In this document: in pieces, positions 13,401 through 13,795 of the stretch
How the letters are laid out: every line of letters starts with the position of its first letter
Numbering within the stretch: the stretch's first letter is position 1
Source of the DNA: Candidatus Altarchaeum sp.
GTDB taxonomy: Archaea > Altiarchaeota > Altiarchaeia > Altiarchaeales > Altiarchaeaceae
Reading direction: 5' to 3'
DNA: 16,051 nucleotides
Assembly: GCA_018260615.1 (NCBI GenBank)
Contig: JAGWDQ010000002.1
Span: 1-16,051, forward strand
The notes under the pieces: generated by a model
The model's input: only the letters and a program-made list of their open reading frames with translations
The model's database searches: none
What the model was told of the DNA's origin: nothing
Program-made: the position numbers and the translations under genes

Positions 13401-13652
13401 ATGAAATATAATGTCGGAGCAACAATAGAGGAGCCGGGAAATAGTACGCTGAATAAAACATCTTCATGGAGAGTGTTGAAACCACTTGTTGAGAATTGTA
13501 CGAAATGCGGATTATGTGCTACATTTTGCCCCGAAGGAATTATTCAGATTAAAGAGAAAGCTGTGATTGATTATGATTATTGCAAAGGATGTGGGATTTG
13601 TGCGGAAGAGTGTCCTGTAAAAGGTATCAAAATGGTCATGGAAACCAAATAA
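13401..13652 (+). CDS. porD: 2-oxoacid:ferredoxin oxidoreductase delta subunit (2x[4Fe-4S])
   Basis: EPGNS..NKTSSWRV.KP, CTKCGLCATFCPEG and DYDYCKGCGICAEECP motifs. Whether it serves the pyruvate or the ketoisovalerate enzyme cannot be determined. Confidence 0.85.
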   Translation: MKYNVGATIEEPGNSTLNKTSSWRVLKPLVENCTKCGLCATFCPEGIIQIKEKAVIDYDYCKGCGICAEECPVKGIKMVMETK

Positions 13653-13702
13653 AACAACAAAATTATTTTAAATTTATTATTTTAAATTTCAGTTAGCGAA
13701 AA

Positions 13703-13795
13703 ATGCCATGCGGAAAAAAAAGAAAAAAGCAAAAGATGCGGAAACATAAATTGGAGAAGCGACAAAAATTATTAAGAAGCCAGCACAGCAGATAA
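13703..13795 (+). CDS. 30-aa basic peptide, bS22/mS38 (AURKAIP1/COX24 C-terminal, DUF1713)-like ribosomal protein (MPCGKKRKKQKMRKHKLEKRQKLLRSQHSR)
   Basis: Read by hand. gaaaa-ATG context, about half Lys/Arg/His. The MP[CS]G[KR]KRK..K...HK..KR pattern matches my recollection of Bacteroidetes/spirochaete bS22. Confidence 0.72.
   Translation: MPCGKKRKKQKMRKHKLEKRQKLLRSQHSR

Follow-up and report, generated by a model that had tools for sequence, protein, structure and literature searches.

The locus and its upstream spacer

The window (the whole stretch of 16,051 nucleotides that was analysed, from Candidatus Altarchaeum sp. of the Altiarchaeota) holds on its forward strand an ATG-to-TAA frame of 30 codons, given in Table 1 with the stop codon included. 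A sequence-only reading had earlier placed a gene for a 30-residue peptide at these very positions, and both frame and translation are exactly as it gave them. A ferredoxin gene ends 50 nt upstream of the ORF and a gene for a small membrane protein begins 22 nt downstream. Further genes in the window encode PCNA, a PRC-barrel protein and a DUF166 protein, and farther away lie the genes of two methanopterin-pathway proteins, Mch and Mtd; given neighbours such as PCNA, Mch and Mtd, the contig is archaeal. Scanning the window for Rfam families and tRNAs gave nothing that overlaps the ORF.

Table 1. Features at and directly upstream of the 30-codon ORF (positions in the window).
Feature	Position	Strand	Basis
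Ferredoxin gene, 2x[4Fe-4S]	13401-13652
Putative archaeal promoter: AT-rich spacer between genes, two TTTAAATT boxes	13653-13702	+	sequence; TATA-like boxes of orthologues
TTTAAATT boxes	13667-13674 and 13681-13688	+	sequence reading
bS22-type peptide gene (highly basic product)	13703-13795	+	ORF, orthologues, purifying selection, PDB matches, shuffle controls

The start context of the ORF had also been called strong. This holds only in part. One of the two boxes in the spacer begins 36 nt and the other 22 nt ahead of the ATG, and outside the window's genus a TATA-like box begins 27-33 nt before the ATG at about 20 of 30 orthologous loci. A Shine-Dalgarno-like motif is absent before the ATG of the ORF. 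The fixed position of the TATA-like box in the loci of other families (-33 to -27) makes the spacer a predicted promoter, and its spacing suggests that the peptide mRNA is leaderless or has a short leader.

Conservation in Altiarchaeota and likeness to bS22

Sister genomes were the place where, according to the sequence-only reading, the peptide should recur. A profile built on 20 Altiarchaeota orthologues (alignment A1, 30 columns) finds credible orthologues in 48 of the 61 Altiarchaeota species genomes, including all 13 high-quality ones, and never more than one credible match per genome (searches at the phylum and class level cover the identical 61 genomes). With a single sequence as query the peptide is found in 33 of 41 relatives. 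The full-length form starting with MPCG is present in 43 of the 61 genomes, and five genomes from two genera carry a variant in which the first four residues are MGVS and the remainder is conserved; this start presumably resembles that of actinobacterial bS22. The peptide measures 28-30 residues in the 20 orthologues of A1 and up to 31 in variants, and 13 of the 30 columns are invariant.

The nucleotide changes between orthologues show the pattern of a coding sequence. Over the first 26 codons the entropy at codon positions 1, 2 and 3 is 0.38, 0.31 and 0.99, respectively, and the codon differences comprise 1775 synonymous against 954 non-synonymous changes (dN/dS of about 0.07, NG86). Within the coding region nucleotide identity is 0.79, whereas the two flanks of 60 nt reach 0.33 and 0.27. 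The 30-codon ORF is a real gene under purifying selection, which gene finders have missed.

Genes next to the orthologues vary by family (TFIIB, a metallophosphoesterase, PheRS, ThiI or Memo); since the neighbours change from family to family, the peptide gene is a stand-alone unit, always located on archaeal DNA. One Altiarchaeota family has a Memo-family gene upstream of it, at a distance of a few hundred bases (G025:C12, G058:C85, G016:C14, G018:C4 and others). Another family (8 genomes, 63-87% complete) yielded neither the peptide nor eL41, and a search with PF08213 as well as a look beside the Memo gene found nothing there. A further genome has two short stretches (G036:C123:1962-1991 and 2117-2146) that may have arisen by partial duplication of the start of the gene.

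The four genomes of the window's genus stand apart in the C-terminal third (A1 columns 17-30), which is derived, contains an acidic residue and has far fewer Lys and Arg, so that these two residues make up about 47% of the peptide against about 69% in the phylum consensus. Contacts of the tail, including any with the large subunit, may therefore differ in this genus from those in the rest of the phylum.

Running the A1 profile against 177,635 distinct PDB sequences gives exactly three chains at E <=10, and all of them are bS22 from ribosome cryo-EM maps: Borrelia burgdorferi (8fmw_V, the best PDB match, E 4.8e-6), Porphyromonas gingivalis (9i5v_10, E 1.1e-4) and Flavobacterium johnsoniae (7jil_5, E 3e-4). 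The three chains align to A1 gap-free over residues 1 to 28-29, as had been proposed from a bS22 sequence pattern, and that pattern agrees with the sequences of the solved chains. Eight of the 13 residues invariant in A1, those of the N-terminal hook included, are identical in all three. In a reciprocal search of 68,952 six-frame genome segments, the window ORF is the top match for each bS22 (E of about 0.02), with the next match at E >=1.8.

Because such peptides are compositionally extreme, a shuffle control was performed with 20,000 composition-preserving shuffles per bS22 chain. The real chains score 24-30 bits against the A1 profile, whereas the shuffles have a mean of about -5 bits and peak at 16.5, and none of the 60,000 reaches a real score. 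Smith-Waterman z-scores against bS22 range from 6 to 11. The concern that short Lys/Arg-rich sequences align easily by chance, raised together with the original proposal, is hereby answered in favour of a specific likeness; taken with the archaeal genes on either side, this supports the idea of a bacterial-type peptide in an archaeon.

The proposed search with the COX24_C (DUF1713) profile gave a more mixed outcome. COX24_C (PF08213) is the sole Pfam family matched, and it is matched by 15 of the 20 A1 members, but every match is below threshold: the best E is 0.067, and the window peptide itself reaches 9.2 bits (E 1.5) where the gathering cut-off is 23 bits. No NCBIfam model matches the window peptide. 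The COX24_C model also misses the Bacteroides thetaiotaomicron control genome, even though bS22 of Bacteroidota is structurally proven, and seems to be blind to the MPxG subtype; given this miss, the Pfam shortfall says little here. The closest ESM-Atlas clusters do carry COX24_C (score 0.95, 200 of 256 features in common). In a library of 1.84 billion proteins only 13 relatives are present, all unnamed or labelled 'hypothetical protein', which can be attributed to the fact that genes this short are rarely called. On the bacterial side, a scan of genome contigs confirmed the peptide at at least three Marinimicrobia loci.

eL41/eS32 and the other archaeal phyla

The known occupant of the equivalent ribosomal pocket in archaea and eukaryotes is eL41/eS32 (PMC7005279), the patchy distribution of which in archaea has been recorded before (PMC3353972, PMC9258230). 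Any likeness of the peptide to this protein is beyond detection: the A1 profile scores -4.1 bits against P. abyssi eL41 and -1.9 bits against yeast eL41, Smith-Waterman z-scores centre around 0 (range -1.7 to 2.1), and hhalign of A1 against five archaeal long-form eL41 sequences (alignment A2) gives a probability of 0.4%. A PF05162 search does not match the window peptide either. As this Pfam model stays below its cut-off even in control archaea, archaeal eL41 sequences were used as queries for the genome searches.

Whether a separate eL41 gene exists had been named as a check, and none that is credible was found, neither in the window's own genome (87% complete) nor across the 61 Altiarchaeota genomes. 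Among 140 archaeal genomes from other phyla, 41 are matched by the same query, which is thus able to detect the protein. When both queries are considered over the 201 archaeal genomes searched, none is matched by both the bS22-type peptide and eL41.

The single eL41 match in the phylum was rejected as contamination. The gene itself is a genuine eL41 and immediately precedes a 16S rRNA gene on a 1.6 kb contig (C397) of bin G059, but this 16S has only 70-73% identity to all Altiarchaeota 16S sequences (about 72% to the second copy of the bin itself) and the eL41 has 81-90% identity to that of unrelated small-genome archaea; the bin is rated 6% contaminated. An eL41 gene directly upstream of 16S rRNA is also seen in several small-genome archaea (L021 39-140, with the 16S starting at about 380; L057; L060).

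Outside Altiarchaeota the bS22-type peptide was found in 3 of the 140 archaeal genomes, none of which has an eL41 match. Two of these three belong to a second phylum (42 species genomes of 0.5-2.2 Mb), in which 24 genomes carry the peptide; its one marginal eL41 match (E 0.009) is in a genome lacking the peptide. In a third, large phylum with genomes of 0.5-1.9 Mb, to which the last of the three belongs, 75 of 251 sampled genomes are positive and the distribution by family is sharply clade-wise, with 11/11, 20/20, 9/9 and 23/28 in some families against 0/50, 0/24 and 0/15 in others. No credible eL41 was found in the sampled genomes of the third phylum, and for many of them neither peptide nor eL41 was found. 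None of the peptide-positive genomes in the second and third phyla has an eL41 match.

Peptides from all three archaeal phyla are nearly identical in pattern. At position 17 nearly all archaeal copies have Leu, against Arg in 10 of 10 clearly bacterial-type sequences. The signature is not absolute, since Leu17 also occurs in one peptide whose contig carries a bacterial-type secretion-tail gene.

On archaeal metagenome contigs, too, a Memo gene is located a few hundred bases before the peptide gene, here with a histone gene in between (L034 811-2318), the histone gene being directly upstream of the peptide gene on L034 and L035; the Memo proteins of these contigs have at most 44% identity (<=44%) to any Altiarchaeota Memo. 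In the second phylum the peptide gene follows a gene for a Glu/Lys-rich, coiled-coil-looking protein of about 250 residues (L062 3150-3899 (-), L064 3142-3900 (-)). No Pfam match was obtained for this protein; its versions in two families share 31% identity, an indication that it and the peptide form a conserved two-gene unit.

In the other two phyla and on the metagenome contigs, many orthologues start 5-8 nt after a strong ribosome-binding motif of the GGTGA type. Several use a start codon other than ATG, namely ATT (L065, L070, L080 and L081) or GTG (L064, L068 and L034/L035), and these starts partly explain why gene callers miss the orthologues.

Probable placement, alternatives and known systems

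Bacterial bS22 sits in a pocket formed by 16S h2, h27, h44 and h45 beside the decoding centre and touches H68/H70 of 23S (PMC10618245, PMC12123416). The pockets of bS22, mS38 and eL41 are considered equivalent (PMC10618245, PMC7005279, PMC12123416, PMC10085706). Overall, we regard the ORF as a genuine archaeal bS22-family ribosomal micro-protein of the MPxG type, most likely taking the place of eL41/eS32 in Altiarchaeota, with a probability of roughly 0.78; the analysis shows that the gene is real and conserved, that its likeness to bS22 is specific and that eL41 went undetected, and ribosome binding and the exact pocket are inferences. The 30-residue peptide most likely fills the small-subunit h27/h44/h45 pocket near the decoding centre. 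Given the identity of 8 of the 13 invariant residues to the solved bS22 chains, the simplest reading is that the archaeal small subunit carries the peptide in the same place. The peptide's N-terminal hook would reach into the pocket that h2/h27/h44/h45 form in 16S rRNA, with the basic C-terminal helix following h44/h45 toward the large subunit and probably adding an intersubunit contact. The peptide would hereby occupy the slot filled by eL41/eS32 in eukaryotes and other archaea. As neither peptide nor eL41 was found in some lineages, the pocket can apparently stay empty, or hold some filler that escaped detection, and the bS22-type peptide may be non-essential.

It might be argued that the peptide, though a true bS22 homologue, acts in archaea as a free polycationic binder of DNA or RNA (for example on chromatin or small RNAs) outside the ribosome. 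Very basic short peptides can indeed bind other nucleic acids, the gene is never located beside ribosomal-protein operons (its neighbours include histone, Memo, TFIIB or ferredoxin genes), and the lineages without both peptide and eL41 would fit as well. Nonetheless, the identical residues in the ribosome-modelled chains include the hook that is buried in rRNA, constraint across three archaeal and several bacterial phyla is better explained by a fixed rRNA pocket, and bacterial bS22 genes stand alone too (PMC10618245), which together make such a role improbable. Still less likely is a divergent archaeal eL41/eS32 orthologue with nothing bacterial-type about it. The expected pocket and size class are the same, the 37-residue archaeal eL41 has the same hook-plus-helix layout (PMC7005279) and a single universal name, uS22, has been proposed for bS22 and eL41 (PMC10085706); against this stand the negative profile scores, the z-scores around 0 and the hhalign result given above, the absence of the tryptophans typical of eL41, and the gap-free alignment to bS22.

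Short Lys/Arg-rich ORFs deserve suspicion in general, as runs of AAA and AGA arise easily in an A-rich genome, and one could think of a chance ORF in an AT-rich spacer or of bacterial contamination of the assembly. With orthologues in 48 of 61 genomes, mostly synonymous change, unconserved flanks, and archaeal genes on both sides on the same contigs (PCNA, Mch and Mtd in the window; TFIIB and PheRS at orthologous loci), we give such an artefact next to no credence.

How a bS22-type peptide came to reside in archaea is a separate matter. The near-identical patterns, Leu17 and the linkage to Memo across divergent Memo proteins point to long residence in archaea rather than to a recent transfer. 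Tentatively, and with considerable doubt, bS22 could be one form of an ancient pocket-filling ribosomal peptide rather than a bacterial invention; Altiarchaeota and several small-genome (DPANN-like) archaeal phyla would have kept it by vertical descent, and eL41/eS32 would have replaced it later in eukaryotes and the remaining archaea. An ancient inter-domain transfer of a ribosomal protein is the alternative, and would be an unusual event in its own right; the roughly 28 alignable positions are too few to separate ancient transfer from common descent.

Ribosomal proteins serve as a reference set that separates the domains of life, and bS22 is listed among them as bacteria-specific. It has been described in Actinobacteria, Bacteroidota and Spirochaetota, with more bacterial cases expected, and the searchable literature holds no report of an archaeal bS22. 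A near-identical peptide that is fixed across one archaeal phylum and present in two more changes this listing: the flanking genes are archaeal, and the hosts span three archaeal phyla. The peptide is also a candidate for the 'missing eL41' of papers on archaeal ribosomes (PMC7005279, PMC3353972, PMC9258230), and it is relevant to the proposal that bS22, mS38 and eL41 should share a single universal name (PMC10085706, PMC10618245). Genes of 28-31 codons, some started with ATT or GTG, are systematically missed in archaeal annotation. If the reading of vertical descent were true, the prefix 'b' would be wrong and the pocket at the decoding centre would have been occupied since before the split of bacteria and archaea.

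Among the known systems, the archaeal peptides compare with MPxG-type bS22 in both size (28-31 residues, within the 28-33 of this type) and basicity (Lys+Arg about 69% in the consensus, 47% in the window's genus). The bS22 of B. burgdorferi (PDB 8FMW chain V) has 28 residues, shares the first four residues with the archaeal peptide, and was likewise previously unannotated with a non-ATG start, as in several archaeal orthologues (PMC10618245). It differs in its bacterial host and in having Arg17 instead of the Leu17 of nearly all archaeal copies; putative TATA-box promoters or ribosome-binding sites of the GGTGA type precede the archaeal genes. The bS22 proteins of F. johnsoniae (7JIL chain 5) and P. 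gingivalis (9I5V chain 10) share the MPxG hook, His-Lys at 15-16 and the basic helix and C-terminus (PMC12123416), but they come from bacterial hosts and have Ser or Asn at residue 3 where the archaeal peptide has Cys; the peptide of the window's genus has a far less basic C-terminal third than these two. Actinobacterial bS22 and mitochondrial mS38 make up the only Pfam family matched (PF08213, COX24_C), although the window peptide remains below the gathering cut-off and mS38 is much longer. Archaeal and eukaryotic eL41/eS32 (for example that of P. abyssi, PDB 6SW9) is similarly a tiny basic peptide, in the same presumed h27/h44/h45 pocket and reaching the subunit interface (PMC7005279), but shares no detectable sequence similarity with the archaeal bS22-type peptide.
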